This document shows positions 10,906 to 50,413 of a DNA stretch of 64,000 bases, piece after piece. Positions within the stretch are counted from its first letter, which is position 1. The number at the start of each line of letters is the position of its first letter. The DNA lies in assembly GCA_947486575.1 (NCBI GenBank), contig CANKUB010000011.1, forward strand, positions 4,030 to 68,029. The letters run 5' to 3'. Below the pieces are notes generated by a model, which worked only from the letters and a program-made list of their open reading frames with translations, searched no databases and was not told the origin of the DNA. This stretch comes from Betaproteobacteria bacterium (lineage in GTDB: Bacteria; Pseudomonadota; Gammaproteobacteria; Burkholderiales; SG8-41). The translations under genes were made by a program, and so were the position numbers.

Positions 10906-11063
10906 TGCACCGAATCTAGGCACCGCGTCGTACTACAGTATTGCTGCCGAGCCGCCGATAACCCTCATGCGGACGGCGAAATTGATGCAAAAGTCCCTCG
11001 GCTTTTGCCGAGTTAAATTCGCCGTTGCCGCCCGTGGCGCAGAAACGACAGCGAGAATTCAAC

Positions 11064-24762: not shown

Positions 24763-25077
24763 ATGGACCCGATCTCTGGCAGCATTGGCGCTGCATCCAG
24801 TACGCTACCGCTGGCGCTGACGCCGCCAGGCGGCAACGTGGCCGCTGGCAAAAAAGGCGATTTCAGCGCTGCATTGAATCAGGCGCTGGAGCAAGTCAGC
24901 CTCAAGCAGGATCAGGCGGACGACTACGCGAAGCGCTTTCAGATGGGCGACAGCAATGTCAGCCTGGAAAAGACCATGGTGGCGCTGCAAACCGCGAACA
25001 TTTCCTTTCAGGCGATGGTGCAAGTACGCAATCGCGTTGTTTCTGCCTATCAGGACATCATGAATATGCAGGTGTAA
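24763..25077 (+). CDS. fliE: Flagellar hook-basal body protein FliE
   Basis: 104 aa with C-terminus SFQAMVQVRNRVVSAYQDIMNMQV. It is divergent from fliF. Confidence 0.92.
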   Translation: MDPISGSIGAASSTLPLALTPPGGNVAAGKKGDFSAALNQALEQVSLKQDQADDYAKRFQMGDSNVSLEKTMVALQTANISFQAMVQVRNRVVSAYQDIMNMQV

Positions 25078-25843
25078 ACGCATTTCCATGCAGATGCGCG
25101 AGCCGTTTGCGCTCAAGTTCCAGGATGTATTTTTGCATTAGCGTTCCTGCCGATCCAGTGGGCTGCACGAACTCACAGCCTATCAACAACCGGCGCTTTC
25201 CCGCCTGCGTATCTTCCATCACGCGCACCACGTTTGCACTGCAAAACACCACCCCGGCGTCGGGAAGATCAATGCGGCAATCCTTGAGGATTTTGCCCGC
25301 CTGCGCCTGCCATTGCTCAGGATCGCCAATAATGCGCATACCCTGCACACTAAATTCTGCCACACGCCATGTCAACACCTTGCGTGGCAACGCCGGTGGC
25401 GCGAAGCGACAGTTTACAATTTCGTTTGGCGGTGTATCAATGCGATAGGCGTCGCGTCGCTGAATTCGCAGAATATATTCAGGCAACGGAATGCCCAGCG
25501 CAGGGCGGCCTTCGTGCGTCATTGCTGCTGCGCGCCCCGTGTCAAAGTGGATACGGATGCGCCTCACTTCGGTTTCGACCGTCACGCTATGTGCCGAGGT
25601 CACTTTAGCGGTCATTTCGGCGTCGGCACACGCATTGAGTACCAGCAGTTTTTCCGCCGCGTCCACTTCAAGCAAGGTGGTAATGGTGGCGTCGTTTGTG
25701 TCACGACTGGTGTCACGGTGTACGCTGGCACGCAGCGTGAGCAATGCGCCCTGCGCCTGCGCATCGCGCAACGCACTCAATATCTCCACCGGCGAGGTGA
25801 TGCGAAAGCGTTCTTCGTTTTGATTCATTGAGGTTGCGCTCAT
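25058..25843 (-). CDS. ycgR: Flagellar brake protein YcgR (PilZN + PilZ, c-di-GMP receptor)
   Basis: 261 aa. The N-terminal YcgR-type domain is followed by PilZ motifs RIQRRDAYR and AEFSVQGM. Its 3' end overlaps the 3' end of convergent fliE by 20 nt. Confidence 0.8.
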   Translation of the reverse strand: MSATSMNQNEERFRITSPVEILSALRDAQAQGALLTLRASVHRDTSRDTNDATITTLLEVDAAEKLLVLNACADAEMTAKVTSAHSVTVETEVRRIRIHFDTGRAAAMTHEGRPALGIPLPEYILRIQRRDAYRIDTPPNEIVNCRFAPPALPRKVLTWRVAEFSVQGMRIIGDPEQWQAQAGKILKDCRIDLPDAGVVFCSANVVRVMEDTQAGKRRLLIGCEFVQPTGSAGTLMQKYILELERKRLAHLHGNAFTPAYS

Positions 25844-28039: not shown

Positions 28040-29440
28040 CTATTTATTCGAATTATTGAGCTGCGAAGTGAGAAAGCTCCCCGTCGCATTCATGCTGGTC
28101 ATCAGTTGATCCAGTGCGGCGAACTGAGTGCGGTAGCGCGCCTCTATTGACGACATGCGATCTTCCAGGCGCGTTTGCTGATCTGCAATACGTTGAATAT
28201 TCGACTGAATGCCGTCGGTACGTGCAGTCAGCGTGCCGCTGCTGCTCAATGCGGAATCGAGCGAACTGGTCAGCGCACGCGCGAATGAACCCATCATGCT
28301 GCTGGCAGCCGCCGGATTTGCGGCGACCGCTGCATCGTATTTGGCGCTGTTTACCGATAGCGTGCCATTGCTTTGCACAGTAATGCCCAGCGACGACAGA
28401 TTGCGGTAGGTATCGCCGTCCACACCGTAATTGCTGGTAACCGTGCGCCGCAATTGCGCCTGCACGCCACGGATCGACGATTCGCCGTTGAGCGGACCGC
28501 CGCTGCGCGCCGCTGCGTCGTAACTCGACTGACTTTTCATGGTGCCACTGGCCGTGTTATAGGATTTGACCAGTTCGTCCAGCGTGGTACGCATAGCCGC
28601 CGTATCGCGCGTCACGGCCACATTAGTGCTGCCAACACTGGCCAGTTTGAACGTTATGCCGCCAACCGCGTCGGAGACATCGTTGGACGGCCGCGTCATC
28701 GGCAGACCATCCACTTCGAATACAGCGTCGCGCCCGACGCGCGCCTCGGTCATGTTGCGTCCGGCGCTGCCAGCGGCGATTTCGGGATCGAAGGCCAGCA
28801 GCGATAGTCCCGCAGCATCCGTGTTGTTGCCATCATCATCCGTGGTACGTATGCGCATGCCTTGCGCTGCGCCGGTGTCATTGGCGCCGATTACCAGGCG
28901 AAATCCGCTGCCATCGTTCACGACCGAGGCGGTGACACCGGCCTTTGCGTTGTTGATGGCATCGCGCATGCCGGTGAGCGTTGTGTTGGCAGGAATCGTG
29001 ATGGTTACAGCCGGTATGTCGACGTTGGCAGTAAAAGTCGTGCCATCGAAACTGCCACGGTCTATGGCAATAGCGCCGCTGCCGACAATGGAATCAGCTG
29101 CCGTAAACGCGCTGGTGTAGATGCGATGCGCGGTTGCGAGGGATTGCACACTTAAGCCATACACAGCCGGTGTAGCGCCGGATTGAACCGTAGCGGCGGC
29201 AACCCCAGGCATACTGTTCGTTACCGTGGCCGGAATGGACGACATGGCATCGCTCAATGCGCGCGATGCCGTTTGCAATGTCGAGAGCACGCCTTTGGTC
29301 ACACCGAAAGCAGAGAGATTCGCCTGGAATTTCGCCGTCTTTGCGGTTAATGCCCTGATCGGCGCGCGCTCAACCTCCATCAGGCTGGCAACCAGCGTGT
29401 TGGCGTCTATATTACTACCGAGACCAGCAAGGGGATTCAT
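28040..29440 (-). CDS. fliD: Flagellar filament cap protein FliD
   Basis: The N-terminus MNPLAGLGSNIDANTLVASLMEVERAPI and the C-terminus RYRTQFAALDQLMTSMNATGSFLTSQL are typical of FliD. The ATG at 29440 has an AGGTG SD 8 nt upstream. Confidence 0.9.
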   Translation of the reverse strand: MNPLAGLGSNIDANTLVASLMEVERAPIRALTAKTAKFQANLSAFGVTKGVLSTLQTASRALSDAMSSIPATVTNSMPGVAAATVQSGATPAVYGLSVQSLATAHRIYTSAFTAADSIVGSGAIAIDRGSFDGTTFTANVDIPAVTITIPANTTLTGMRDAINNAKAGVTASVVNDGSGFRLVIGANDTGAAQGMRIRTTDDDGNNTDAAGLSLLAFDPEIAAGSAGRNMTEARVGRDAVFEVDGLPMTRPSNDVSDAVGGITFKLASVGSTNVAVTRDTAAMRTTLDELVKSYNTASGTMKSQSSYDAAARSGGPLNGESSIRGVQAQLRRTVTSNYGVDGDTYRNLSSLGITVQSNGTLSVNSAKYDAAVAANPAAASSMMGSFARALTSSLDSALSSSGTLTARTDGIQSNIQRIADQQTRLEDRMSSIEARYRTQFAALDQLMTSMNATGSFLTSQLNNSNK

Positions 29441-29546
29441 AAGGGATTCACCTGTTATCGCTTCGTGAAATGCAGATGCCGTGGCGAGGGAATCCCCCGC
29501 CACGGCGCTGCTAACGCGTGTTTCTGCTGATCACTGCCGTTGCGGA

Positions 29547-30368
29547 TTAACGCAGCAGCGCCAACACTTGCTGTGGCAACTGGTTGGCTTGCGTCAGCAT
29601 GGCCATGCCGGCTTGTTGCAGAATCTGTCCGCGTGACAGGCTCGCCGTTTCCGTCGCAAAGTCTGCGTCGGTGATACGTCCGCGCGCCGCGGTTTGATTT
29701 TCAACCGACACCTGCAGGTTGGCAATCACCGAATCAAAGCGGTTTTGATCCGCACCATAGTTACCACGCTCTTGCGCAATGGCGATCAAGGCCGCGTCGA
29801 TGTTGTCCATCGCCGTGGTGGAGTTCGCCACAGCGGTGATGTCGCCGGCAGTGACGGCCGTCACGTTAGCATCACTGGACATATCAATGGTGGTGATGTC
29901 GATGGTGTCAGTCGAATTCGCGCCCACCTGAAAGGTCAGCGTACCCGCATCACTGCCGAGAATATTCTGGCCGTTGAATTTTGTATCGGTCAGTATGCGG
30001 GTAATTTCCGCACCCAATTGTTGATATTCCGCGTCCAGATTCAAGCGGTCGTCAGAGCTGTTAGTGACGTTGGCCGATTGCACCGCGAGTTCGCGCATGC
30101 GTTGCAGCGAATCCGTTACTTTGGCGAGCGAGCCTTCCGCCACGGCGGCGAGAGAAATCGCATCGTTTGAGTTGCGGATGCCGACGCTCATGCCGCGAAT
30201 CTGCGAAGTCATGCGATCGGAGATCGCCATGCCCGCAGCGTCATCCTTGGCGCTGTTGACACGCAAGCCCGAAGACAAACGTTGCATGGATGTACTGAGC
30301 GCCATCTGGGTAGCGCCGATATTGCGTTGGGCATTGAGTGAAGATATGTTGGTGTTGACTGAAAGCAT
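29547..30368 (-). CDS. fliC: Flagellin (short, 273 aa)
   Basis: MLSVNTNISSLNAQRNIGATQMALSTSMQRLSSGLRVNSAKDDAAGMAISDRMTSQIRG ... SLSRGQILQQAGMAMLTQANQLPQQVLALLR. Confidence 0.95.
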   Translation of the reverse strand: MLSVNTNISSLNAQRNIGATQMALSTSMQRLSSGLRVNSAKDDAAGMAISDRMTSQIRGMSVGIRNSNDAISLAAVAEGSLAKVTDSLQRMRELAVQSANVTNSSDDRLNLDAEYQQLGAEITRILTDTKFNGQNILGSDAGTLTFQVGANSTDTIDITTIDMSSDANVTAVTAGDITAVANSTTAMDNIDAALIAIAQERGNYGADQNRFDSVIANLQVSVENQTAARGRITDADFATETASLSRGQILQQAGMAMLTQANQLPQQVLALLR

Positions 30369-30459: not shown

Positions 30460-30487
30460 TTAACGGACTGCGTTGCGGAAAACTTTA
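30460..30487 (-). promoter_or_regulatory. Sigma-28 (FliA) promoter of fliC
   Basis: The minus strand reads TAAAGTTT-N12-TCCGTTAA (consensus TAAAGTTT-N11/12-GCCGATAA), about 90 nt upstream of the fliC ATG. Confidence 0.6.
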
Positions 30488-40553: not shown

Positions 40554-41294
40554 ATGTATACCGAAAACGGGACGTTGGATCGCAAGCAGTGCATCGAGAA
40601 ATTCTCGCCGATGGTCAAGCGCATTGCGCACCATCTGATGGCGCGCCTGCCGGCCAGTGTGCAATTGGGCGACATGGTGCAGGCGGGACTGATCGGACTG
40701 GTGGATGCCGCAGGCCGCTATGAAAACAGTCAGGGCGTGCAATTTGAAACCTATGCCGCGCAACGCATACGCGGCGCCATGCTCGATGAGCTGCGCACCA
40801 ATGATTGGGTGCCACGCGGCGTGCGCAAGGCGCAACGCAAAATAGATACCGCGCAATCGCAACTGGAGCAAATGCTCGGCCGTGCGCCGCTCGAAGCCGA
40901 AATCGCCGAGCATATGGAAATCCCGCTCGACGACTACCGCGACATGCTGAACGACACCTACGGCTTTCAATTGGTGCACGTCGACGATTTTGATCATGGT
41001 GGGGACGGCGGCGACCGCGGTGAATTTATGGATCGCCATTGTCCACCCGATCACGCCGATCCGTTTGCCATGCTGTCCGATGCGCACTTCAAAAAAGCCT
41101 TGGTCGGGGCGATTGAATTGCTGCCCGAACGTGAAAAACTGCTGATGGGGCTGTATTACGAAAAAGAGTTAAATTTCAAAGAGATAGCCGCAGTACTCGG
41201 TGTAACAGAATCGCGCGTGTGCCAGTTGCACAGTCAGGCGGTGACGCGGCTGCGCGGCAAGCTTAAGGATTGGAAAGGGCAGTGGAATAATTGA
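40554..41294 (+). CDS. fliA: Flagellar sigma factor FliA (sigma-28)
   Basis: 246 aa with region 2 (GDMVQAGLIGLVDAAGRYE...FETYAAQRIRGAMLDELR) and region 4 (ELNFKEIAAVLGVTESRVCQLHSQAVTRLR). Confidence 0.95.
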   Translation: MYTENGTLDRKQCIEKFSPMVKRIAHHLMARLPASVQLGDMVQAGLIGLVDAAGRYENSQGVQFETYAAQRIRGAMLDELRTNDWVPRGVRKAQRKIDTAQSQLEQMLGRAPLEAEIAEHMEIPLDDYRDMLNDTYGFQLVHVDDFDHGGDGGDRGEFMDRHCPPDHADPFAMLSDAHFKKALVGAIELLPEREKLLMGLYYEKELNFKEIAAVLGVTESRVCQLHSQAVTRLRGKLKDWKGQWNN

Positions 41295-41329
41295 GGCTGG
41301 GCACAATCACTGCGGCGCCGTTACAACCT

Positions 41330-41589
41330 TCAGTCCGGCGCTTTCCGCTGCTGTAGCAAGCCGCCTATCGAACACCGGAACACCGCGAAATCGATGGATG
41401 AAACGGCACCAGCATTCAACCGCAATGCACTCGCCAGATGAATGGCATCGAGTCCACGCAATGTTGCCAATGCTTTGTCCTTGGAGACACGGCTTTGCAT
41501 TGCCGCCCCGTGCCCGCTTCGCGCACGTAATGCTTGACCAGCGCCGGGGTATCGAGATGCAGAATCAATGGCGGCCTTGTTTGACCCAC
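41330..41589 (-). pseudogene. Degraded PIN-domain (VapC-like) toxin gene
   Basis: The N-terminal PIN motif ILHLDTPALVKHYVREAGT is in one frame and the C-terminal motif LRGLDAIHLASALRL is in another. The total span of about 87 codons is too short for a PIN domain, so a frameshift plus an internal deletion is inferred. Confidence 0.5.
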
Positions 41590-41671
41590 ATGGAGAGCGA
41601 CACGCCTTACGATTCGATTCGCCCTGCGGCAGGCCGACGGGCTTGCCGCCATTCCAGCGGATGCCAAACAA

Positions 41672-41816
41672 TTACGCCAGCGATGCAAGTGATGCGCTGG
41701 CTTCAAACGGCACAATGCGCGCTATAGGGAGTTTATGCGCTTTGGCCGTCACGGCTTGGCCCTCAACGGCCCTTTTGACGTAGCTACGGAGACTGGCTTG
41801 CCTGCGTGCCCATCAT
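41672..41816 (-). pseudogene. Remnant of a Phd/YefM-type antitoxin gene
   Basis: The frame encodes ...SLRSYVKRAVEGQAVTAKAHKLPIARIVPFEASASLASLA*, resembling the (GKPVARLVP) antitoxin core. The only SD-preceded ATG (41816) is in a different frame, so a 5' frameshift is apparent. Confidence 0.4.
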
Positions 41817-41991
41817 CAAAGTGCCCACACCTTTCTATTGGTGAACGCATTAGTAGCGCAGCACTGATCCGCGTAAATTTATGGGGCGCGACGCAAGTGT
41901 TCCCATGCCGCCGCCACTGTCAATCGGGTGACAGCTAAAATGTAGAAGTTGCGCGCCGATCTGACAGTTACTGATTGGTCGTGCTGGGTTG

Positions 41992-42293
41992 TCAGATCAA
42001 TTCAGTTGCGTAACGTTGGTGTCGTAGCCCTCCTTTCCGGCAATCAGAATCGGCTTGCAGTTGCATGAGTGGCTCGTAAATCTTCTTTCTGAATGGCATC
42101 TGATAGAACTCCTGCGAGATCGTCTTGTGGAAACGCTCGCAGACGCCGTCGGTTTGCGGTTGACGCATTGGCTCTTGGTATGCTCGACCCTCTCCTTTGT
42201 GGTCCGGCTTGCGCCGGAATCATGTACTAGTTTCTCCAATATGGGCCCGCTTCGAATGTTTTGAGGCTGCTGCCCAAAATGGAGGAGCATCAA
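41992..42293 (-). mobile_element. Frameshifted C-terminal fragment of a DDE (rve/integrase-core) transposase, IS481-like
   Basis: The minus strand encodes ...RVEHTKSQ / (frameshift) / PQTDGVCERFHKTISQEFYQMPFRKKIYEPLMQLQAD, the hallmark PQTNGxxERF region. The N-terminal two thirds of the transposase are absent. A 9-bp inverted repeat GATCTGACA/TGTCAGATC lies at 41959-41999. Confidence 0.55.
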
Positions 42294-42318
42294 GTGCGGG
42301 GTTCAACCATCACCAATT

Positions 42319-45234
42319 TTACATATTCAAATACTGTATCTGTGTCGTCGTGAACTGCGATATCTGCGTCGTCGTCAGTGCTCCCACTTGCGGGGCCGTC
42401 AGCGCGCCCACCTGGCTGGTCGTCAACTGTGCTACGGGCAGTGCCGTCACCTGGGTGGTGGATAGTGCTGCTATTTCCAAGGCTGAGATCGACTGGATTT
42501 GCGCCGTGCTCAAGGCACCCAGCACTGTGGTGGTCAACCCCGACACCTGCGCGGTGGTCAATGCCCCAATCTGCGCGGTGGTTAAAGTGGCTCCCAAGCC
42601 GCTGATCTGCGTGTAAATCATAGCCGCGACTTGGCTGGTTGTGATGCCTGTGACCTGCGTGGTAGATAAGGCACCCAACTGCGTGGTCGTGAGTGAGCCG
42701 ATTTCCTTGGTCGATATGGCCTGCAACTGCACCGTGCTCAAGCCGCCCAGCGTGGTGGTGCTCAGTCCCGACGCTTGCGCGGTAGTCAATGCGCCTATCT
42801 GCGAGGTGGTGAAGGCCGTACCCAGTGCGCCGATCTGGGCCGTTGTCAGCGAGGCAATTTCGCTCGTCGAGATGGCCTGCAACTGGGCTGTGCTCAAGGT
42901 TCCCAGCACCGTGGTTGTCAGACCAGCGGCTTGCGCTGTGGTCAATGCGCCAATCTGCGTGGTGGTTAAACTGGCTCCCAGGCCGCTGATCTGCGTGTAA
43001 ATCATGGCCGCGACCTGGCTGGTTGTGATGCCTGTGACCTGCGTGGTCGAAAATCCGCCCAACTGCGTGGTGGTCAGTGCGGCAATTTCCTTGGTCGAGA
43101 TCGCCTGTAACTGTGCGGTGCTCAAGCCCCCCAGCGTGGTGGTGCTCAGTCCCGATGCCTGCGCGGTGGTCAACGCGCCGATCTGCGCGGTGGTGAAGGC
43201 GGTACCCAATGCGCCAACCTGGGCCGTTGTCAGTGAGGAGATATCACTGGCTGAGATCGCCTGCAATTGAGCTGTGCTCAAGGTTCCCAGCACCGTGGTT
43301 GTCAGTCCTGAGGATTGCGCTGCGATCAGCGCATCCACTTGCGTAGTGGTGAATTTTGCCGCCAGCGTTCCAACCTGGGCGGTCGTCAGTGCCGCCACCT
43401 GACTGGTCGTGATGCCTGTGACCTGGGTGGTCGATAAGGCGCCCAACTGGGTGGTCGTCAGTGAGCCGATTTCCTTGGTGGATATCGACTGTAATTGTGC
43501 CGTGCTCAAGCTGCCCAGCGTGGTGGTGCTCAATCCTGAAGCTTGCGCCGTGGTCAGTGCACCAATCTGGCTGGTGGTGAAAGTGGTTCCCAACGCGCCG
43601 ACCTGAGCTGTCGTCAGCGAGGCAATTTCGCTCGTCGAGATGGCCTGCAACTGGGCCGTGCTCAGGGTACCCAACACGGTAGTGGTCAGTCCTGAAGCCT
43701 GCGCGGTGGTTAATGCGCCAATCTGTGTGGTGGTCAAATTGGCTGCCAATGAACTCACCTGGGCGGTCGTCAGCGCTGCTACCTGGCTGGTTGTGATGCC
43801 AGTAGCCTGTGTGGTCGATAAGGCGCCCAACTGCGTGGTCGTGAGTGAGCCGATTTCCTTGGTCGATATGGCCTGCAACTGGGCCGTGCTCAAGCTGCCC
43901 AGCGTGGTGGTGCTCAATCCTGAAGCTTGCGCCGTCGTCAGTGCGCCGATCTGCGCGGTGGTGAAAGCGGTAGTCAATGCGCCGACTTGAGCCGTTGTCA
44001 GTGCAGCGATCTCATTCGTCGAGATGGCTTGCAACTGCGCTGTAGTCAGAGTGCCTATCACCGTGGTCGTCAGTCCAGCGGCTTGCGCTGTGGTCAATGC
44101 GCCAATCTGTGTGGTGGTCAAATTGGCCGCCAATGAACTCACCTGGGCGGTCGTGAGTGCTGCCACCTGGCTGGTCGTGATTCCGGTGACCTGCGTGGTC
44201 GATAAGGCGCCCAACTGCGTGGTCGTCAGTGAACCGATTTCCTTGGTCGATATGGCCTGCAATTGCGCCGTGCTCAAGCTGCCCAGCGTGGTGGTGCTCA
44301 ATCCTGAAGCCTGCGCCGTGGTCAGTGCGCCAATTTGCGCGGTGGTGAAGGCGGTAGTCAATGCACCGACTTGAGCCGTTGTCAGTGCAGCGATTTCCTT
44401 GGTGGAGATCGCCTGCAATTGCGCCGTGCTCAGGGTTCCCAGCACCGTGGTTGTCAGTCCAGCGGCTTGCGCTGTGGTCAATGCGCCAATCTGCGTGGTG
44501 GTTAAATTAGCTGCGAGGGATCCAACCTGAGCGGCTGTGAGTGCTGCCACCTGACTGGTCGTGATGCCTGTGACCTGCGTGGTCGATAAGGCGCCCAACT
44601 GTGTGGTCGTCAGTGAGCCGATTTCCTTGGTGGATATCGACTGTAATTGTGCCGTGCTCAAGCTGCCCAGCGTGGTGGTGCTCAATCCTGAAGCTTGCGC
44701 CGTCGTCAGTGCGCCGATCTGCGCGGTGGTGAAGGCGGTAGTCAATGCACCGACTTGAGCCGTTGTCAGTGCAGCGATTTCCTTGGTGGAGATCGCCTGC
44801 AATTGCGCCGTGCTCAGGGCACCCAGCACCGTGGTTGTCAGTCCAGCGGCTTGTGCTGTGGTCAATGCGCCAATCTGTGTGGTGGTTAAATTGGCTGCCA
44901 GTGTCCCGGCCTGGCTGACCGTCAGCGCGGATACCTGACTCGTAGTCAGGGCGGCAATCTGGCTGGTTGACAAGGCCGAAACCTGTGCCGTTGTCAGAAC
45001 CGCTATGTCTGCTTTGCTGATCGCATCCAGCTGCGAGTTACTGAACAGGGCAAGTGCAGCCGTGCTGATCTGGACAATGTTTACGGTAGAGATTGCCCCG
45101 ATCTGGGCCGTCGTCAATTGCTGTGCCTGAGTCGTACTCAGGGCCTGAATATCGCTAGTGGATAGTGACGATATCTGCTTGGTGCTCAGAGCCGCGATTT
45201 GCGTCGGCGACAGGGACGATATGATGGAAGTCAT
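42319..45234 (-). CDS. 971-aa Thr/Ala/Ser/Gln-rich octapeptide-repeat protein of no family I can name
   Basis: The ATG at 45234 has AGGAG 9 nt upstream. The whole protein is a run of about 120 octads of the type L-[ST]-T-[AT]-Q-[IVL]-x-[AGS]. I see no signal peptide, TM segment, Cys or Trp, and K/E occur almost only in the ISTKEI octad. It ends inside repeat-like sequence (TTTQIQYLNM). Confidence 0.8.
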   Translation of the reverse strand: MTSIISSLSPTQIAALSTKQISSLSTSDIQALSTTQAQQLTTAQIGAISTVNIVQISTAALALFSNSQLDAISKADIAVLTTAQVSALSTSQIAALTTSQVSALTVSQAGTLAANLTTTQIGALTTAQAAGLTTTVLGALSTAQLQAISTKEIAALTTAQVGALTTAFTTAQIGALTTAQASGLSTTTLGSLSTAQLQSISTKEIGSLTTTQLGALSTTQVTGITTSQVAALTAAQVGSLAANLTTTQIGALTTAQAAGLTTTVLGTLSTAQLQAISTKEIAALTTAQVGALTTAFTTAQIGALTTAQASGLSTTTLGSLSTAQLQAISTKEIGSLTTTQLGALSTTQVTGITTSQVAALTTAQVSSLAANLTTTQIGALTTAQAAGLTTTVIGTLTTAQLQAISTNEIAALTTAQVGALTTAFTTAQIGALTTAQASGLSTTTLGSLSTAQLQAISTKEIGSLTTTQLGALSTTQATGITTSQVAALTTAQVSSLAANLTTTQIGALTTAQASGLTTTVLGTLSTAQLQAISTSEIASLTTAQVGALGTTFTTSQIGALTTAQASGLSTTTLGSLSTAQLQSISTKEIGSLTTTQLGALSTTQVTGITTSQVAALTTAQVGTLAAKFTTTQVDALIAAQSSGLTTTVLGTLSTAQLQAISASDISSLTTAQVGALGTAFTTAQIGALTTAQASGLSTTTLGGLSTAQLQAISTKEIAALTTTQLGGFSTTQVTGITTSQVAAMIYTQISGLGASLTTTQIGALTTAQAAGLTTTVLGTLSTAQLQAISTSEIASLTTAQIGALGTAFTTSQIGALTTAQASGLSTTTLGGLSTVQLQAISTKEIGSLTTTQLGALSTTQVTGITTSQVAAMIYTQISGLGATLTTAQIGALTTAQVSGLTTTVLGALSTAQIQSISALEIAALSTTQVTALPVAQLTTSQVGALTAPQVGALTTTQISQFTTTQIQYLNM
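42598..44901 (-). repeat. Six tandem, near-identical 384-bp (128-aa) higher-order units inside the repeat-protein gene, plus a partial seventh extending to about 42440
   Basis: Unit boundaries were counted from the protein (units start at aa 112, 240, 368, 496, 624, 752). Antisense ORFs recur at 384-bp and 768/1152-bp offsets (43640/44024; 42641/43409/44561). Confidence 0.9.
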
Positions 45235-45337
45235 GAGTCATTGCTCCTATATTAATTGTCTATGGTCGGTTGCTTCACCGCCAATCGCGCCACCATTTTG
45301 GAAGTCGCGACACAACGCTCCGTTGAGCCTACACACA

Positions 45338-45364
45338 TCAACGGCGCTGCTTTTAAATTCTTGA
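45338..45364 (-). promoter_or_regulatory. Putative FliA-type promoter of the repeat-protein gene
   Basis: The minus strand reads TCAAGAAT-N11-GCCGTTGA, about 100 nt upstream of the ATG. The -35 octamer is identical to those upstream of motA and the HDOD gene. Confidence 0.5.
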
Positions 45365-45667
45365 GGCTCACGTAAATCGTCGCCAGGATTCTGGACGCGA
45401 ACGGCTGCGGGGGCGTATGCAACGACAATCGGCTCAAGCGACTGGCCTTGCAGAACGTCCTGCGCAAGAAACAACTAAGGAAGCACTAAAGAAACGACTG
45501 ACCGAGTCGCTACTGAAGAATGCTGCGCAGAAAACCTGCGTACCTCATCAATACGGCGGGTGCTGGCGCGGGACAGGCCATGCAAAGCGTCAAAGCAAAG
45601 GGGCAAAGATGCGTCAGTTAGAGGCCCCCGTTCGGATCGCAGTTTTTGCGCCCGACTGATTCAGCCC

Positions 45668-48436
45668 TTATTGACGTATTGCGTAAAGCGCCATGTGGGC
45701 GTGCTGCTGGTCGGACAGGGCAAGATCGATCATTTCAAAACCGCTGGCGCGCACAAGCTTGATGATTCGCTCGCGGCTGAAATTGTGACAGCGTTCCATT
45801 TGTGACCAATACGGGTTGGCGTTGGCAGCATCCATGGCTTTCCAGCTTGAGGACATGAGGTCAGGCATGCCTATGACCATCAGGCCACCGGGTCGCAGCA
45901 CTTGCGCCGCTTTGCGTAAAGCTTCCAGCGGATACGGAATATGGTCCAGAACATCCATCAGGGACAGCACATCGACCACGATTTTGAATTGCAGGGTTAT
46001 AAAATCGTGCTGCATCGCATTGAAACCCAATGCCTGAACGTTCTTAACCGCATCAAGTCGTGTGTCCAGTCCGACAGCGGCAAAGCCATAATCTGCGGCG
46101 GTCATGACTAATGCACCGTCGCCGCATCCGGCATCCACCCAGACCGGTCGGCTGGGCTGGTTGATAAAGTTCGGGTAGCCACCAAGGTGAGTGACTGCTT
46201 TTCCCACCACCTTAGTCCATGTCGCCCGCCTCGCACCGTAAATACCATTGGCGTCCGCAATCGATCTTGCACTGGCGTCGCGGAATACTTCGGTCAAACC
46301 GGCTGGCGTCCAGTAATGACGTTTATATACGTGATCGCACGACGCGCACCGCATCCATTCGGCGGAAAGCGGCAAAGGTGTGTGCCACAAATCCTGTTTA
46401 GAACAATCTGCGAAACCTAACGTCGCGCTGGCACCGTCGCACAGGGGGCAGGCTGCGAAGGCGGCCTGCCATTCTGGCGCAGGTTCCGCAATGATGGCAT
46501 CGGCCTTCGGTGCGTCAGCCGGGGGCCGCACTACCGACCCGCAGTCGGGTACGTCGATAGGTCCATGTGGTGCGCCGCTGTCATGCCGCTGCACCATTAA
46601 CTCGATCGCCGTTTCAAAATTCTGGGTAAACCGCAAGGTATCGAACAGCGGTGCTGTTGTGCGGTTCGCCGCAATTTTATTTCGCAGCGCCAGTCGATAG
46701 TCTGTTTCAGTGCCCATGCGTTTTGCGATACGCACCATATCGTCATGGTTTGCGCCAACCAGCTCCGGCAAATCAATCGCATTCAGCAGACTTTCGCTGA
46801 CGCGCGAGGGAAAATGCCCGCCTCGGCAGGTAATTACAGGAATGCCTGCCCATAGCGCATCCGACGTAGTGGTATGTCCATTGCAGGTCAGCGTATCAAG
46901 GACCGCGTCGGCAAGCTGCAAGCGCGCCAGATGTGCCTGCGGGGCGGCAAACGGTGCGAAGATCAGTCTATCCGGCGCAATTCCGGCTAGCTGTGCGTAA
47001 CGCGACAGATTCTCAACAGCAGCCGGGCTTTGACCCAACATCCAAAGTACACTGTTTGGCACCTCATTCAAAATGCGCATCCAGACGGCAAAACTGGTGC
47101 GATCAACCTTGTAAGACTGGTTGAAGGCACCGAATATGAACTTGTCGTCCGGGAGTCCGTGCAAGGCGCGAGTACCGGGATACGCTGCAAGAAAGCGCCT
47201 GCTGTCGTTGCACTGGTAGGTGTGGGGCAGGCGACAGAATGCCTCGGTGTAAAACGGCGCGCTGCTGTCGGGTGTAACGAACCGGTCCGACACGATGTAG
47301 TCAATGTCAGCGTTCGCCGCACTGCCGGGGTAACCCAGGTAAGCCACTTGCAGCGGCGCGGGCCGGTAGGCCATGATGCCCGGACGACCGCCACCCGTGT
47401 AAAGCTTCAAATCAAACAGAATGTCCAGTTGATCTTCCGCGATGCGGGCGGCAGCCTGCCTGTCGCTCAGCGAGTGGATTTCAACGTGATGTTCGACAGC
47501 ATTGAGAAAACGTTGCCGGTAGTCGGAAACATCGAAACTGCTGTAGTCATACGCAAAGACTTCGAAGCGATCCCGATCATGGGATTCAAAAATGCCCGCC
47601 ATCAGATACATGGTTGCATGGTTGCGAAAATCGCATGACACGTAGCCTACACGAATACGTTTTCCCTGGGGCCGGACAGCTTTGGCCTTATGCGGTTCAT
47701 TACGTGGTTCAACTTGCGGCACCATACGTTTTACATAATCGCGGGTCACGCCCAGGTTGTAGGCTTCGTCCATGCACCAAGTCAGGTGCGTCAACGGATA
47801 TTCATGGGGTGCGTCAAAGTTGCCGCGCTCGTACCACGCGCCGATTTTTTGCTGCAGCGATTCAACCCATTCCCACTCGCAGGTGAAGCGTGCCGGCACC
47901 AAGGCAGCCCCGACCAGCGCAGGATCGTCGGGCGATAGCGTGACAATCTTTTTGAAAGCAGCTGAAGATTCTTCATACAAATCAACACTTTGCAGTAGCA
48001 ATGCCGCACGCGAGAGAAGCTGGGGATTGCTACTGACCAGCAGTTGGCGTCGGGCAAATTCAAGCGCCTCACTGTGGCGGTTGGCATTGAAAAGCGTGGT
48101 AATCAGCGCGTCTAATATCACCTCGCTATCCGAGTCTTCACCGAGGGCGGTTTGCAGGCATCTGACGGCTTCATCTGTGTTGCGCTCGGCCGCCAGCAAT
48201 ACTCCCGCCGCCAGCCAGTTGCGTGCGCCGCCACCTTTTGCGCCAGCTTCCTGGAATGCCTCAATGGCTTCGGCCAGACGCCCGGACTGCCGCAATGCCT
48301 CAGCTTTCAGTGCCAGCACCGCAGGGTGCTTGGGCTGTTGCGCCAGCAATTTATCGAGTTTGGGCAAGGCCTTGGCGGCGTACCCGTTGTTAACCTGCTT
48401 AAGCAGCGTAGCCAACTGCTCTGCCTGGATTATCAT
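45668..48436 (-). CDS. Tri-domain enzyme: N-terminal TPR + GT41 (O-GlcNAc-transferase-like) glycosyltransferase + C-terminal class I SAM methyltransferase
   Basis: 922 aa. The TPR-like first ~200 aa are followed by a central region with RIRVGYVSCDFRNHATMYL, LQVAYLGYPGSAANADIDYIV, FGAFNQSYKV and CNGHTTTSDALWAGIPVITCRGGHFPSRVSESLL, which closely resembles the OGT catalytic C-terminus (CNGHTTGMDVLWAGTPMVT). The last ~270 aa have a Cys4 motif and VWVDAGCGDGALVM...LRPGGLMVIGMP. Confidence 0.85.
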   Translation of the reverse strand: MIIQAEQLATLLKQVNNGYAAKALPKLDKLLAQQPKHPAVLALKAEALRQSGRLAEAIEAFQEAGAKGGGARNWLAAGVLLAAERNTDEAVRCLQTALGEDSDSEVILDALITTLFNANRHSEALEFARRQLLVSSNPQLLSRAALLLQSVDLYEESSAAFKKIVTLSPDDPALVGAALVPARFTCEWEWVESLQQKIGAWYERGNFDAPHEYPLTHLTWCMDEAYNLGVTRDYVKRMVPQVEPRNEPHKAKAVRPQGKRIRVGYVSCDFRNHATMYLMAGIFESHDRDRFEVFAYDYSSFDVSDYRQRFLNAVEHHVEIHSLSDRQAAARIAEDQLDILFDLKLYTGGGRPGIMAYRPAPLQVAYLGYPGSAANADIDYIVSDRFVTPDSSAPFYTEAFCRLPHTYQCNDSRRFLAAYPGTRALHGLPDDKFIFGAFNQSYKVDRTSFAVWMRILNEVPNSVLWMLGQSPAAVENLSRYAQLAGIAPDRLIFAPFAAPQAHLARLQLADAVLDTLTCNGHTTTSDALWAGIPVITCRGGHFPSRVSESLLNAIDLPELVGANHDDMVRIAKRMGTETDYRLALRNKIAANRTTAPLFDTLRFTQNFETAIELMVQRHDSGAPHGPIDVPDCGSVVRPPADAPKADAIIAEPAPEWQAAFAACPLCDGASATLGFADCSKQDLWHTPLPLSAEWMRCASCDHVYKRHYWTPAGLTEVFRDASARSIADANGIYGARRATWTKVVGKAVTHLGGYPNFINQPSRPVWVDAGCGDGALVMTAADYGFAAVGLDTRLDAVKNVQALGFNAMQHDFITLQFKIVVDVLSLMDVLDHIPYPLEALRKAAQVLRPGGLMVIGMPDLMSSSWKAMDAANANPYWSQMERCHNFSRERIIKLVRASGFEMIDLALSDQQHAHMALYAIRQ

Positions 48437-48822
48437 AAGACTCCAATTTATCAGTGGTATTCACTATGTCGCGGCACATAGCGGCTTTAGGCTGGAAAAG
48501 CGAAGCGCGTGCTACGATGACCTTTGCAAAATGAATACGCAATATTTTCATCGAATCATTTGATTTGAATCTGCAAAATAGGCGGTAGAAACCCCGTCTG
48601 TAGACTAAATTGCCACCTAAATTCTAGATCGAGTAAGCAGAATTTAAGTAGGTCAACCTTTCAAGCAGAGATTGCTATGGAAGGTATCGTGTGAAAGGCC
48701 CATGCCCTTGCAGGCATTGGAGACATTGCCAGACTTGGTCGCTAGATTGAGCCGGTCGAGCTTGCGCAAGCGCCGCACGCCAAATGCAGATTTGCCTTGT
48801 ATGCGCGTTGAATTGCGTTGCG

Positions 48823-49212
48823 CTAAATCCCCAAATACCCATTCGCGCGGTATAACGTATTCGCGCGATGATCACCGCCGCGCAGCAGACGCAGGCGGCT
48901 TTCGCAGGCGGTGCGGTGCATGGCCAGCATGGTGGCATTGATGGCGTTAAGGCGTTGCGCACGACGGGCCAGCGCGGGCACTTCCGGCTCAATTGCGCTG
49001 GCGCTGTCGGTAGCATAGTGGGTGCCGCCGCACAGCACGTGCAGATCGTTGACGAGCACCTGCTTTGCTGCAGCGATGGCTTCCAGCACTTCGACTTGCG
49101 GATTGCCCAATGCTTGCCGTTCATGCTCCAGCAGCGCGATAAAGGTGGTGAGCGCCTGGTGCTTAGGCCCCGGTTTCAAAGCAGCGGTCGCCTGCGGTGT
49201 GAGGTCATGCAT
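48823..49212 (-). CDS. flgN: Flagellar chaperone FlgN
   Basis: 129 aa following flgM with an 8-nt overlap: LTTFIALLEHERQALGNPQVEVLEAIAAAKQVLVNDL. Confidence 0.8.
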   Translation of the reverse strand: MHDLTPQATAALKPGPKHQALTTFIALLEHERQALGNPQVEVLEAIAAAKQVLVNDLHVLCGGTHYATDSASAIEPEVPALARRAQRLNAINATMLAMHRTACESRLRLLRGGDHRANTLYRANGYLGI

Positions 49213-49516
49213 ACTGGCGACCCATCAATTCGCCGATGCTCTGGATCACTTTGTCGGCGACGGCTTCTGCATTAACCTTGTAGCTGCCGTCGCGTATGGC
49301 GGCCTTGATTTGCTCTACACGCGTGGCATCGAATTCGGGTTCGCGGCTCAGTTTGGTCTCCAGTTGATGTATTTGCGTGGATAAATCCGATAGCCGGATT
49401 GATCCGCTGCCCTCGTCCGCAGTGGCCGTGCCGGCTTTGGCGGAAGCGCTGGATGCCGCAGGAGTGGCCTGCGTTAACGGGGCATTAATTTTATATAAGT
49501 TATTGATTACATTCAT
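49205..49516 (-). CDS. flgM: Anti-sigma-28 factor FlgM
   Basis: 103 aa with C-terminal DATRVEQIKAAIRDGSYKVNAEAVADKVI. Confidence 0.9.
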   Translation of the reverse strand: MNVINNLYKINAPLTQATPAASSASAKAGTATADEGSGSIRLSDLSTQIHQLETKLSREPEFDATRVEQIKAAIRDGSYKVNAEAVADKVIQSIGELMGRQYA

Positions 49517-49590
49517 AATATTCTCCTTGGCCCAAGACGGTTGCGAATGCTGCTAGCGGGCACCGTTACTGCTGATCGTACACATACTGC

Positions 49591-49617
49591 TTTTCGGCAG
49601 TGTTTTCGCAAACTTTA
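49591..49617 (-). promoter_or_regulatory. Sigma-28 promoter of flgMN
   Basis: The minus strand reads TAAAGTTT-N11-GCCGAAAA, about 75 nt upstream of the flgM ATG. Confidence 0.7.
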
Positions 49618-49657
49618 GGGCTGTCATGATTTAAAGGATTTAAAGCGGTTAAAACGG

Positions 49658-50413
49658 TTAGAGACGCACTTCCACAATTTTTCCTGCGCGGGCTACCCCG
49701 CTCATGGTGCGTCCCGAGTCGGCCTGCACGCGCACCATTTGACCGTCTGCGCCCGCCGACAACGCCTTGCCGTAGCTGGATACCGCGAAGCCTGCCCCGC
49801 TGGCGATCAGTTTTACCATGTCGCCTATTACAACAACCGGCCGCGCGCGCAGATGTTCGCGGCGCAGTGCCTGACCCTGCGCAATGTTGCGTGACAGAAT
49901 GGTGTCGCCAATTTGCGCGAGATCAGTGAGCACGCCGGGCGCTTCACGCGTTAATTCGATTTCCTGCAACGTCAGGCCATCCTCACCCGGGGTTTCGCCA
50001 GCCGCCAGTGCGCGCGCCGCTACCAGCCCCAGGCCATAAACTTTTATTTGCACCGGTATCAGCACGCTCCAACCCGTGCCGCCGCCTGATGCGCCGTCCT
50101 GGCAACGCACGCCGAGCATGGTGCGCCCCCACAGGCGCGCGCCCGCAGGCATGAAAGGTGTCATATTGGTACAGGGTGCGAGCCGCAAGCGATCGTCCAT
50201 TGCGCCGATCACCACTTCCACACGGCCTGGCAATCCGGTGGTTTCAGCGTCCAGATACAGCTTGAGCAGTCTGGAGGGGTCTTGCGGCTGTGCTGCGGGT
50301 GCAGTGGGTGCGGTGCGCGCCACAGGCGGGATATTTTGTCCGTGAGTTTGTCCGTGACTGTCGGTGATAAACCACATCGCCACTGCCAGTATTACTACGA
50401 AGCGAGCTTCCAT
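49658..50413 (-). CDS. flgA: Flagellar P-ring assembly chaperone FlgA
   Basis: 251 aa with a signal peptide and a C-terminal SAF-like region (GDMVKLIASGAGFAVSSYGKALSAGADGQMVRVQ). It is divergent from flgB. Confidence 0.85.
   Translation of the reverse strand: MEARFVVILAVAMWFITDSHGQTHGQNIPPVARTAPTAPAAQPQDPSRLLKLYLDAETTGLPGRVEVVIGAMDDRLRLAPCTNMTPFMPAGARLWGRTMLGVRCQDGASGGGTGWSVLIPVQIKVYGLGLVAARALAAGETPGEDGLTLQEIELTREAPGVLTDLAQIGDTILSRNIAQGQALRREHLRARPVVVIGDMVKLIASGAGFAVSSYGKALSAGADGQMVRVQADSGRTMSGVARAGKIVEVRL

Follow-up and report, generated by a model that had tools for sequence, protein, structure and literature searches.

Several described systems couple a cytoplasmic glycosyltransferase with a large repetitive protein coded by an adjoining gene: the HMW1C-HMW1, the Aah-AIDA-I/TibC-TibA and the GtfA/B-serine-rich repeat adhesin pairs. 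The HMW1C, Aah/TibC and GtfA/B-type enzymes are thought to modify their repetitive partners many times prior to export, and HMW1C is a GT41 enzyme. Eukaryotic OGT and XcOGT of Xanthomonas are characterized by a TPR superhelix combined with a GT-B catalytic domain; OGT acts on thousands of substrates, and we know of no substrate for XcOGT. Fusions of a COG3914/GT41 domain to an AdoMet methyltransferase are found in enterobacterial flagellar clusters, often with further glycan-building genes, and were assigned in silico to flagellin, with no repeat protein being reported (De Maayer and Cowan, 2016; PMC4875605). Such fusions in flagellin islands are hence already known. What was not noted before, and what we report here, is a partner protein and its regulation; the original prediction of an undescribed system stands for these two aspects, but not for the fusion itself or for the repeat family, which is named in Pfam (PF20080).

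The stretch of DNA analysed (henceforth the window; 64,000 nucleotides) has the gene order flhB-flhA-flhF-fleN-fliA (plus strand), the pair (minus strand) and flgN-flgM-flgA (minus strand). Both ORFs of the pair were recovered on the minus strand, and together with the neighbouring genes they agree with the predicted placement of two large same-strand genes between fliA and flgMN. The enzyme gene (45668..48436, minus strand) codes for a TPR-GT41-Cys4-methyltransferase protein of 922 aa, as delineated by its ORF, Pfam matches and alignment to OGT. It sits between the sigma-28-driven flgMN operon (48823..49617, minus strand; flgM and flgN by Pfam matches) and the ALTTAQ-repeat gene (42319..45234, minus strand), which codes for a 971-aa protein recognized by its ORF, PF20080 match, AlphaFold2 model and sequence match to PDB 9ZEM. 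The predicted AGGAG Shine-Dalgarno of the latter can be read from the sequence 9 nt before the ATG (45244..45248, minus strand). A weak terminator-like hairpin found 3' of the enzyme gene by a consensus scan (45493..45511, minus strand; 7-bp stem with 3 GC pairs) does not exceed the regional chance level.

In Pfam searches the enzyme matches TPR families, Glyco_transf_41 (E=2.7e-93) and Methyltransf_23 (E=5e-18), and it aligns with human OGT (E=2e-80) and XcOGT (E=4e-65); these matches bear out the predicted closeness of its GT41 core to OGT and the presence of a C-terminal class I SAM methyltransferase. Its orthologues (1173 matches) are ~915 aa long with 60-85% identity. The TPR region (~aa 10-175; 47912..48409, minus strand), with matches to TPR_19, TPR_14, TPR_2, TPR_8, TPR_16 and ANAPC3 at aa 13-125, aligns to the TPRs of XcOGT from aa 118 and presumably forms a substrate-docking superhelix. 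The GT41 catalytic domain (~aa 250-619; 46580..47689, minus strand) is covered by two blocks (155-413 and 421-619) that align to the catalytic lobes of human OGT and, like XcOGT, lacks the metazoan intervening domain. The enzyme motifs SCDFRNHATMYLM, FNQSYKVD and CNGHTTTSDALWAGIPVIT line up with the OGT catalytic motifs SDFGNHPTSHLM, FNQLYKID and CNGHTTGMDVLWAG, and contain H273, K443 and T522/T523, which are invariant in 14 orthologues. The sequence thereby displays the TPR N-terminus, catalytic His, UDP-binding Lys and Thr-Thr of the GT41/O-GlcNAc-transferases. The enzyme also matches SPY (O-fucosyl; 1e-38) and an NGT model (N-glucosyl; 7.6e-4, against a cut-off of 1000 bits), both types being included in the GT41 family; its chemistry is predicted to be O-linked and OGT-like, in contrast to the N-linked HMW1C.

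Beyond the catalytic domain is a zinc-ribbon-like linker (46337..46450, minus strand) with four cysteines, C663, C666, C697 and C700, which are invariant in the orthologue alignment A1; a Pfam search with this linker recovered no match. The C-terminal class I SAM-dependent methyltransferase domain (~aa 760-904; 45725..46159, minus strand) is UbiG/Methyltransf_11-like, with matches to Methyltransf_23, _11, _12, _25 and _31 and with UbiG as its best PDB match (1e-5). Its motif I, VDAGCGDG, and a GLD motif are invariant among the aligned orthologues, and the GxGxG motif I and the acidic residue after beta-2 that typify this class are both present in the sequence. The Cys4 linker, the methyltransferase, the sigma-28 linkage and a single candidate cognate substrate set the enzyme apart from OGT and XcOGT.

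The repeat protein consists almost wholly of L-[ST]-T-x-Q-[IVL]-x-A octads and, although it had at first seemed to belong to no nameable family, it is a clear member of the Pfam family PF20080, "ALTTAQ repeat" (ALTTAQ_rpt; E=1.8e-154, 501.6 bits against a cut-off of 26.4 bits, 35 stretches). It is rich in Thr (24.2%), Ser (10.9%) and Gln (10.6%), has only 28 charged residues and is devoid of Cys, His, Trp and Arg. Tandem Repeats Finder detects 6.4 copies of a 384-bp higher-order period in the gene (42464..44914, minus strand; score 3018), corresponding to a 128-aa unit of 52+76 aa, within which a single 10-residue helix and a single 7-residue loop break the octad register. The protein is thus mostly, rather than only, made of octads as had been predicted, and each full unit contains 30-35 Thr and 11-17 Ser, close to the 32 and 12 originally counted. 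The number of copies varies between strains or assemblies, with identically flanked contigs lacking exactly 1, 2 or 3 units. The array is preceded by an N-terminal module (aa 1-107; 44914..45234, minus strand) and followed by a conserved C-terminal end (...TTQISQFTTTQIQYLNM) with the stop codon (42319..42465, minus strand). While no signal peptide or TM segment was detected in the protein (max KD19 1.62), as predicted, the termini do not conform to the claim that they are indistinct: they are repeat-like, yet the best conserved parts among orthologues, the centre being variable. The N-terminal ~80 aa are 45-62% identical and nearly gap-free relative to 17 gamma- and betaproteobacterial orthologues, and the C-terminal ...STTQIPYLNL recurs in the orthologues as ...STTQ[IV]PYL[NT][LVI].

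AlphaFold2 predicts, with a pLDDT of 93.5, one capped mini-helix of 5-6 residues per octad, with helical octads throughout, no strands, and structure from residue 2 onward. An ice-nucleation/antifreeze-type Thr-ladder beta-solenoid was ruled out on the basis of this all-helical model. The protein resembles the crystallised designed HeliScrew4 (PDB 9ZEM; E=4.4e-11, 34-38% identity in register), a likeness of sequence only: screws of this type are marked by a tightly wound superhelix with 2.5-4 units per turn, and a Foldseek search of the PDB with the AlphaFold2 model recovered neither 9ZEM nor 7QLR, its top match being mesothelin (TM 0.3-0.4). The two share an 8-residue repeat (L-[ST]-x-x-[QEK]-[IVF]-A-A in HeliScrew4), the N-cap Ser/Thr and the hydrophobic core; however, HeliScrew4 is a designed protein of 120 aa that has a charged surface and carries Pro at N1, whereas the window protein, which is natural and 971 aa long, is almost uncharged and has Thr at N1 and a 128-aa higher-order period. 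The preprint on helical screws (bioRxiv 10.64898/2025.12.04.691947) describes the same N-cap/N1 logic and gives a single natural PDB example, 7QLR. Position 2 is Ser/Thr in 85% of the octads, and positions 1 and 6 are hydrophobic; in the model and the octad statistics we hence find the single short helix per repeat, the N-cap and the apolar core of an 8-mer helical screw. As the octad is predicted to be a capped mini-helix like that of HeliScrew4, a structural role, that of the helix capping box, is assigned to the Ser/Thr of position 2 together with the invariant Gln, which leaves only the position-3 Thr free as an acceptor.

An ALTTAQ ORF directly adjoins a full-length enzyme orthologue in 36 of 40 species-level loci (36 of the 38 for which both flanks could be judged), and when metagenome loci are anchored on the N-terminus of the ALTTAQ protein instead, all 10 that can be evaluated have the enzyme. 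The pairing is therefore reciprocal and near-universal, in line with the co-occurrence anticipated in the original prediction; unlike the fusions of De Maayer and Cowan (2016), the enzyme is tied to the ALTTAQ gene rather than to fliC. The pair is found in Pseudomonas, Steroidobacteraceae, Burkholderiaceae, other Burkholderiales and Azonexus. It occupies at least four flagellar syntenic contexts, namely: fliA|pair|flgNM; fliC-fliD-fliS-pair; flgB..|pair|cheR-cheV-flgA; and flgA-flgM-pair. GT41-only relatives with <45% identity have no ALTTAQ neighbour, and in Ca. Burkholderia humilis (L047) the enzyme gene is degraded and the ALTTAQ neighbour is absent. Among more distant giant ALTTAQ proteins, 14 of 64 loci feature a TPR-GT41 or TPR-GT41-GT2-MT neighbour, even though contigs are truncated. 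Additional GT2, GT9, GT10, GT11, GT25, DUF4422+Glf and DUF5672 genes often occur beside or fused to the enzyme, and in its gene content the locus behaves like a protein-glycosylation island. Beta-barrel and TpsB genes were found neither in the window nor in ~60 related loci; together with the absence of a signal peptide this rules out an HMW1C/HMW1-type or autotransporter-heptosyltransferase-type system. The pair further differs from the adhesin pairs in its candidate substrate, a predicted alpha-helical screw as opposed to a beta-helix or disordered Ser-rich region, in having no Sec signal and no two-partner, autotransporter or accessory-Sec genes, and in its flagellar regulation.

A sigma-28 (FliA)-type promoter, TCAAGAAT-N11-GCCGTTGA, is located 130 nt upstream of the ATG of the repeat gene (45338..45364, minus strand; 11/13). 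By itself this site is weak, and it is convincing only via its positional conservation. In a search for promoters of the type TAAAG-N14-GCCGATAA, with the fliC and flgM promoters of the window as positive controls, sites scoring at least 11/13 were recovered in 21 of 23 orthologous regions upstream of the repeat gene, about 125 nt from it (mostly at ~112-134 nt with a few at -174/-190); among the controls, 1.8% of the random windows and 2.3% of the shuffles reach this threshold. The site is conserved also at loci outside flagellar clusters, such as that of P. japonica. This conservation supports the predicted production of the repeat protein along with the flagellum, and on its strength the pair can be assigned to the flagellar regulon. 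The flgMN operon has a strong sigma-28 promoter, TAAAGTTT-N11-GCCGAAAA (49591-49617, minus strand; 15/16). Upstream of the enzyme gene the best sigma-28 score is only 9/13, so that no separate promoter was matched for this gene; a consensus scan detected no terminator-like site within 48437-48822, and transcription of flgMN may extend into the enzyme gene by read-through.

On balance, we lean towards a late-flagellar two-gene module, wherein the enzyme O-glycosylates the ALTTAQ protein, which is then exported and acts extracellularly. Active FliA (sigma-28) would direct transcription of the ALTTAQ gene and, in most lineages, of the enzyme gene just downstream too. The ALTTAQ protein would, at this stage or later, form a long alpha-helical screw with one mini-helix per octad: Leu1 and Ile/Val6 would furnish the core, Ser/Thr2 the N-cap and Gln5, at N3, the closure of the capping box, with Thr3 at N1. 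The cytoplasmic enzyme would grip this protein by its TPR superhelix and transfer a sugar, most likely a HexNAc or hexose, from a UDP-sugar to the hydroxyls of Ser/Thr; the likeliest acceptors would be the position-3/4 Thr, which are predicted to be dispensable for the fold. The fused UbiG-like methyltransferase might then methylate the glycan, and in other lineages the additional glycosyltransferases might lengthen it. Finally, the ALTTAQ protein would probably be exported late via the flagellar type III apparatus and act outside, at or near the flagellum.

The original prediction equated Thr-richness with a massively modifiable protein. This may hold for the position-3 Thr; however, helix capping probably accounts for all of the Gln and a large part of the Ser/Thr, and giant ALTTAQ proteins with and without a GT41 neighbour show no difference in hydroxyl content. 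ALTTAQ repeats are also common in proteins without a nearby GT41. PF20080 proteins fused to calpain, SPM, G8, RTX or Ig-like domains share the repeat family and presumably the fold but carry enzymatic or adhesive domains, whereas the window subfamily is repeat-only, with its own conserved termini and the GT41-methyltransferase and sigma-28 linkage. Position 3 is Thr/Ser in 84% of the octads of paired proteins, as against predominantly Ala/Pro in the calpain- and G8-fused ones. SPM-fused ALTTAQ proteins, of which the one checked has no GT41 neighbour, likewise have Thr at this position, an observation that goes against the substrate reading. Known OGT-type enzymes act on extended peptides, and the tight predicted fold would also count against modification of this kind. 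Nevertheless, among natural proteins that a bacterial OGT homologue might modify, we consider the repeat protein the best candidate so far; if it is indeed a substrate, it would be the first cognate one for such an enzyme.

A different, rather unlikely, explanation is that the enzyme is a flagellin glycosyltransferase and the ALTTAQ protein a co-regulated late flagellar non-substrate, or at most a second substrate. Flagellin glycosylation islands of enterobacteria do commonly contain methyltransferase-fused GT41 enzymes (PMC4875605), and OGT-annotated genes in flagellar clusters of Magnetospira were taken as flagellin glycosyltransferases (PMC7175107); yet the published flagellin assignment is itself in silico. 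At many loci, across several lineages, the pair directly follows fliC-fliD-fliS, and at two others (L010 and L043) the enzyme lies in a flagellar cluster with no adjoining ALTTAQ gene. In the window, however, fliC is 15 kb from the pair, and the enzyme retains its ALTTAQ neighbour far from any flagellin gene in P. japonica and at L007, L011, L015, L022, L037, L038 and L045. Moreover, L030 and L031 possess the pair and also, beside fliC, a second and different TPR-glycosyltransferase, which fits one enzyme per substrate.

It is likewise doubtful that the ALTTAQ protein is glycosylated by its neighbour without being a type III substrate, whether as a cytoplasmic scaffold or binding partner, or as a general fibre or adhesin of the cell surface that is produced together with motility and leaves the cell by another route such as type I secretion. 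ALTTAQ repeats do occur in RTX, metalloprotease, calpain, Ig-like and G8 proteins, as is typical of secretion, and the non-repeat C-termini of the giant relatives have weak EF-hand/dockerin matches; but neither an RTX nor a C-terminal domain is present in the window protein, and genes for type I secretion or other transporters were not seen beside the pair in any of ~60 loci, the linked secretion genes being flagellar only. The predicted structure from residue 2, as opposed to a disordered N-terminus, and the occasional location of the pair outside flagellar clusters favour a non-type III role. Conversely, the sigma-28 promoter, the lack of Cys and the conserved termini flanking a variable centre are reminiscent of late substrates of flagellar export. 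The protein also lacks a signal peptide and TM segment, and neither an export signal nor a chaperone could be recognised for it by sequence. That the repeat ORF is a mere by-product of tandem DNA repeats is effectively refuted: several long antisense ORFs cross the array and copy number differs among assemblies, but the protein family match is strong, the termini are conserved over proteobacterial classes, the promoter and RBS are conserved, the AlphaFold2 model is confident and the copy-number variants are whole-unit and always in frame.

Returning to the two-gene module, one specific and speculative version, which we would not expect to hold in full, is that the subfamily is a hitherto unrecognised extracellular flagellar part: long, sigma-28-made, O-glycosylated helical-screw fibres that their own OGT-like enzyme would modify in the cytoplasm, and that would be exported by the type III apparatus and coat, bundle or sheath the filament. 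If so, the "dark-matter" helical-screw fold would be abundant in nature. The flagellar sheath of Magnetococcus massalia MO-1, as cited in PMC7175107, is a glycoprotein of >350 kDa with Ca-dependent assembly. It offers a precedent, by analogy only, for a very large glycoprotein assembling around flagella; Magnetococcales encode ALTTAQ-containing secreted proteins.

Two genes lie between fliA (40554-41294, + strand) and flgN/flgM/flgA (48823-50413, - strand): one codes for an enzyme of 922 aa (45668-48436, -) and the other for a repeat protein of 971 aa (42319-45234, -). The enzyme combines TPR repeats with a GT41 glycosyltransferase domain, at Pfam E=2.7e-93, and a methyltransferase domain of SAM class I, which matches Methyltransf_23 at E=5e-18. 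Among solved structures it matches human OGT (2e-80) and XcOGT (4e-65), with SPINDLY weaker at 1e-38. Its motifs SCDFRNHATMYLM, FNQSYKVD and CNGHTTTSDALWAGIPVIT align to the OGT motifs around the catalytic His, the Lys that binds UDP and the Thr-Thr pair; the enzyme has no intervening domain. The cysteines of a Cys4 linker (C663, C666, C697, C700) and a VDAGCGDG motif are invariant among the orthologues. Judged by sequence matching, this family of ~915 aa is widespread and well conserved (1173 matches at 60-85% identity in Pseudomonas, Paucimonas, Paraburkholderia and many MAGs). P. aeruginosa FgtA, a GT2 enzyme, was for that reason discarded as a possible relative. Pilin is reportedly the substrate of a Synechococcus OGT homologue; beyond this case we know of no physiological substrate for any bacterial OGT homologue.

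The repeat protein is rich in Thr (24%), Ser (11%) and Gln (11%), has only 28 charged residues and is devoid of Cys, His, Trp and Arg; its gene is a 384-bp repeat in 6.4 copies. The original prediction described both ORFs correctly, since the Pfam and structure matches, the composition and the 384-bp repeat all agree with it. It had further held that the repeat protein consists of octads only and lacks a distinct terminal domain, and it had named no family for the protein. These points need revision: the 128-aa unit is made up of 52+76 aa and its octad register is broken in places, orthologues have conserved termini, and the protein matches the Pfam family PF20080, the ‘ALTTAQ repeat’, with E=1.8e-154. 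The ALTTAQ orthologues range from 256 to ~1,680 aa, and all begin with MTSI(V/I)xS(M/L)SxxQ... as part of ~80 common, nearly gap-free N-terminal residues, and end in ...STTQ(I/V)PYL(N/T)(L/V/I). In a profile search with the N-terminus, repeat matches predominated, and the hits were confined to small fragments and a single apparent FlgG-ALTTAQ chimera where a contig ends. Across contigs of the window's species with identical flanks there are versions of 971, 843, 715 and 587 aa (window 42464-44914; loci L001, L003, L004 and L006), the shorter ones arising by exact in-frame loss of one to three whole 128-aa units; in two further contigs (L002, L005) the protein is split into two overlapping ORFs. 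Variation between strains, phase variation and collapse during assembly could each account for the differences in unit number.

The two genes co-occur across genomes, as the original prediction had expected. A forward scan with one genome per species recovered 52 loci, 40 with a full-length enzyme orthologue; in 36 of these 40 an ALTTAQ ORF directly adjoins the enzyme gene, usually upstream and co-directional, with a gap of tens to hundreds of bases. Of the remaining four, two are cut by contig ends and two (L010 and L043), both inside flagellar clusters, are without a repeat gene. The same scan found no ALTTAQ neighbour for distant GT41-only relatives. In a reverse search of metagenome loci, anchored on the conserved ALTTAQ N-terminus by a narrow alignment, all close-orthologue loci on long enough contigs (10/10) carry the enzyme. 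Giant ALTTAQ ORFs, the longest of 6,445 aa, came up in the reverse search as well: the neighbour in 14 of 64 such loci is a TPR-GT41 (~620 aa) or TPR-GT41-GT2-MT (1,087 aa) protein, several of them in flagellar clusters. Some ALTTAQ proteins have no GT41 link. The giant ORFs of three metagenome loci (L116:659-19993, 6,445 aa; L099:2114-15961, 4,616 aa; L138:3944-13933, 3,330 aa) show repeats from the very start and no signal peptide; that of L138 lies between fliM/N/P/R-like genes and flgL/K/J/I, and that of L099 is followed by a TPR-GT41-GT2-MT enzyme. In Candidatus Burkholderia humilis (L047), which we take to be a genome-reduced symbiont, the enzyme gene is reduced to two overlapping partial ORFs (55% identity, aa 208-652 only), with neither an ALTTAQ gene nor flagellar genes nearby, which would fit a decaying module in this lineage.

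The pair is found in at least four different flagellar contexts: fliA / pair / flgNM in the window; flgA-flgM-enzyme-ALTTAQ in L017; fliC-fliD-fliS-ALTTAQ-(GT2)-enzyme in Steroidobacteraceae, other Gammaproteobacteria and Burkholderiaceae; and flgBCDE / ALTTAQ-enzyme / cheR-cheV-flgA-flgM in Pseudomonas. In some genomes it lies outside flagellar clusters, e.g. beside a PAS-MCP gene in P. japonica. The strongest evidence for the flagellar link is regulatory conservation in the upstream sequences, scored for the sigma-28 motif T[AC]AAG-N13-15-GCCGATAA. A score of at least 11/13 is reached by 21 of 23 ALTTAQ upstream regions, nearly always 112-134 nt before the ATG and also at genes outside flagellar clusters, against 1.8% of random windows from the same loci and 2.3% of shuffled upstream regions (0.14% at 12 or more). 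The window's own site, TCAAGAAT-N11-GCCGTTGA (45338-45364), is weak alone and lies at the conserved distance, 130 nt from the ATG. The positive-control promoters of fliC (30460-30487) and flgM (49591-49617) are clear, and the whole-window scan taken alone (92 matches vs 57 in shuffles) leaves the repeat gene's site at noise level. Only the cross-species positional comparison is informative. In the window the pattern CAAG-N13-GCCGAT shows no enrichment, and a sigma-70/terminator consensus scan of 41200-49000 gave nothing above chance. The enzyme gene lies behind flgMN, the consensus scan shows no terminator-like site in the stretch between, and the gene has no upstream sigma-28 match of its own; read-through from flgMN is therefore plausible. 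The leader between sigma-28 site and ATG measures ~100 nt in most lineages (window 45235-45337; L007-L078). RNAalifold found neither consensus structure nor covariation in ten such 5' leaders; clade-specific hairpins can be seen (GGCTCAAC...GTTGAG after the -10; GGCGG...CCGCC before the RBS). A further sigma-28-like site, TAAAATGT-N11-GCCGATCT (41936-41962, +; 12/16), faces the 3' end of the repeat gene in antisense direction and, at this score, may be due to chance.

Structure prediction of the repeat units, which the original prediction had proposed, gave confidently all-helical octads: an AlphaFold2 model of residues 1-363 (pLDDT 93.5, pTM 0.79) folds each octad into one helix of 5-6 residues and a link of 2-3 residues, with one 10-residue helix and one 7-residue loop per 128 aa. 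A β-solenoid or ice-nucleation-like reading of the Thr-rich octads was rejected on this all-helical prediction. The modelled register puts Thr3 at N1, and the Ser/Thr2 of the N-cap forms a classical capping box with Gln5 at N3. A Foldseek comparison of the model with the PDB returned mesothelin and ARM repeats as best hits, none convincing (TM <=0.4). A sequence search recovered PDB 9ZEM, ‘HeliScrew4’, with E=4.4e-11 and 34-38% identity in register. The 2.2 Å crystal structure of this designed 8-mer repeat serves to define the ‘alpha-helical screw’, in which the core is apolar, the N-cap is Ser/Thr/Asp/Asn and N1 is Pro; the authors report only one natural example in the PDB and pose the fold's rarity in nature as a question, the ALTTAQ family going unmentioned (bioRxiv 10.64898/2025.12.04.691947). 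The window protein has Thr rather than Pro at N1, whereas the capping and apolar-core logic is common to both. Because the modelled octad helices and the 9ZEM match agree in this logic, the protein looks like a natural helical screw of ~120 octads. Of 8,000 candidates scored in a single search, 430 proteins match PF20080 at E <=0.001, some of them with thousands of residues; the fold would seem to be amply represented in nature by this family.

The fold also bears on the original argument that the protein is a substrate on account of its Thr content. This argument is weakened because the fold needs the Ser/Thr at position 2 and the Gln; position 3 is dispensable to it. Position 3 is T/S in 84% of the octads of GT41-paired proteins, whereas Ala/Pro prevail there when the ALTTAQ protein is fused to calpain or G8. 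SPM-fused proteins also have T/S there, in 76% of octads, and the single one of them that was checked has no GT41 neighbour. Among giant ALTTAQ proteins, Ser/Thr at positions 2-4 does not differ with GT41 adjacency.

From the observed pairing, promoter conservation, fold prediction and catalytic-residue conservation we infer the biochemical and cell-biological steps of a dedicated, late-flagellar O-glycosylation pair, a reading towards which we lean slightly. FliA would drive the ALTTAQ gene; the cytoplasmic enzyme would dock via its TPRs, glycosylate exposed Ser/Thr of the ALTTAQ protein, most plausibly at positions 3 and 4, and methylate the glycan, which other lineages would extend. The product would probably be exported, most simply by the flagellar type III system, and act at or near the flagellum. 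Its conserved ends with a variable centre, the lack of Cys and of a Sec signal, and the sigma-28 control are reminiscent of proteins exported late by the flagellum, a resemblance that is analogy and not evidence. As in a glycosylation island, the enzyme of other lineages has additional glycan genes after it, fused to it or between it and the ALTTAQ gene: a GT2 gene in ~10 loci, GT9 in L034, a fucosyltransferase of GT10-like type in L024, GT25 and GT11 with an extra methyltransferase in L020, DUF4422 with a UDP-galactopyranose mutase in L031, and fusions to DUF5672 in L019 and GT2 in L043.

One rival holds that the enzyme acts on flagellin and is not dedicated to the ALTTAQ protein, as has been assumed for GT41-MT fusions in enterobacterial islands (PMC4875605) and OGT-annotated genes in Magnetospira (PMC7175107). 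It fits L010 and L043, the flagellar loci without a repeat gene, but leaves unexplained why the enzyme tracks the ALTTAQ gene rather than fliC. Two pair-bearing loci have a separate TPR-glycosyltransferase directly beside fliD/fliC, namely a TPR-GT41 N-lobe-GT2 protein (1,125 aa; L030:4447-7821, -) and a TPR-GT9-like protein (818 aa; L031:16275-18728, -), which fits one docking enzyme per substrate. Alternatively, the ALTTAQ protein might be modified and remain cytoplasmic, or leave by another route, related ALTTAQ proteins bearing RTX and other secreted-protein domains; no transporter genes, however, lie alongside the pair in the ~60 loci covered. That the repeat ORF is an artefact is effectively excluded.

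Already known are the occurrence of the fusion enzyme in flagellar islands, the Pfam entry for ALTTAQ and, since a preprint of December 2025 (bioRxiv 10.64898/2025.12.04.691947), the helical-screw fold. The literature searched yielded no mention of ALTTAQ or of the enzyme-ALTTAQ pairing. What comparative sequence analysis and modelling add are the near-obligate pairing, the predicted control by sigma-28 in both Gamma- and Betaproteobacteria, and ALTTAQ proteins as candidate natural helical screws. A near-obligate gene partner offers a concrete candidate physiological substrate for a bacterial OGT homologue in culturable hosts, such as Pseudomonas japonica (isolate 66C3), P. izuensis and Paraburkholderia panacisoli (DCY113). 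If the proposal is true, a large, conserved, FliA-controlled gene pair joins the late flagellar regulon of several well-studied genera, and a fold just reported as near-absent from nature (9ZEM) would be tied to a large natural family, whose longest proteins reach ~6,400 residues. The pair also cautions against naming every GT41-methyltransferase gene of a flagellar island a flagellin glycosyltransferase by default.

Several minor observations concern the surroundings of the pair. The ~1 kb from the fliA stop to the repeat gene stop (window 41295-42318) has no convincing gene and no Rfam match, as is the case for Rfam across the whole window; the same 1,025-bp gap is without a called gene in all related contigs. 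ORFs at 41330-41715 (-) seemed PIN/VapC-like by eye, a reading dropped when Pfam found nothing. The window flagellin (273 aa; 29547-30368, -), with fliD (28040-29503) after its gene, comprises N- and C-terminal helical domains with almost no variable region, and has little exposed surface for glycosylation compared to the 400-490-aa flagellins of other pair-bearing loci. In two Burkholderiaceae loci a Na+/Ca2+ exchanger gene is situated between fliC and the pair (L027:4995-6089, -; L031:14965-16155, +), and the non-repeat C-termini of four giant ALTTAQ proteins (L079, L083, L086, L099) give weak EF-hand/dockerin-like matches. These may hint at a calcium link, resembling the Ca-dependent glycoprotein flagellar sheath of strain MO-1. 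The same flagellar region of the window codes for a YcgR-like PilZN-PilZ flagellar brake protein (25058-25843, -) and a response-regulator-EAL phosphodiesterase (11025-12266, +), and in L036, L045, L046 and L078 the pair itself is flanked by EAL/GGDEF-type or MCP genes.
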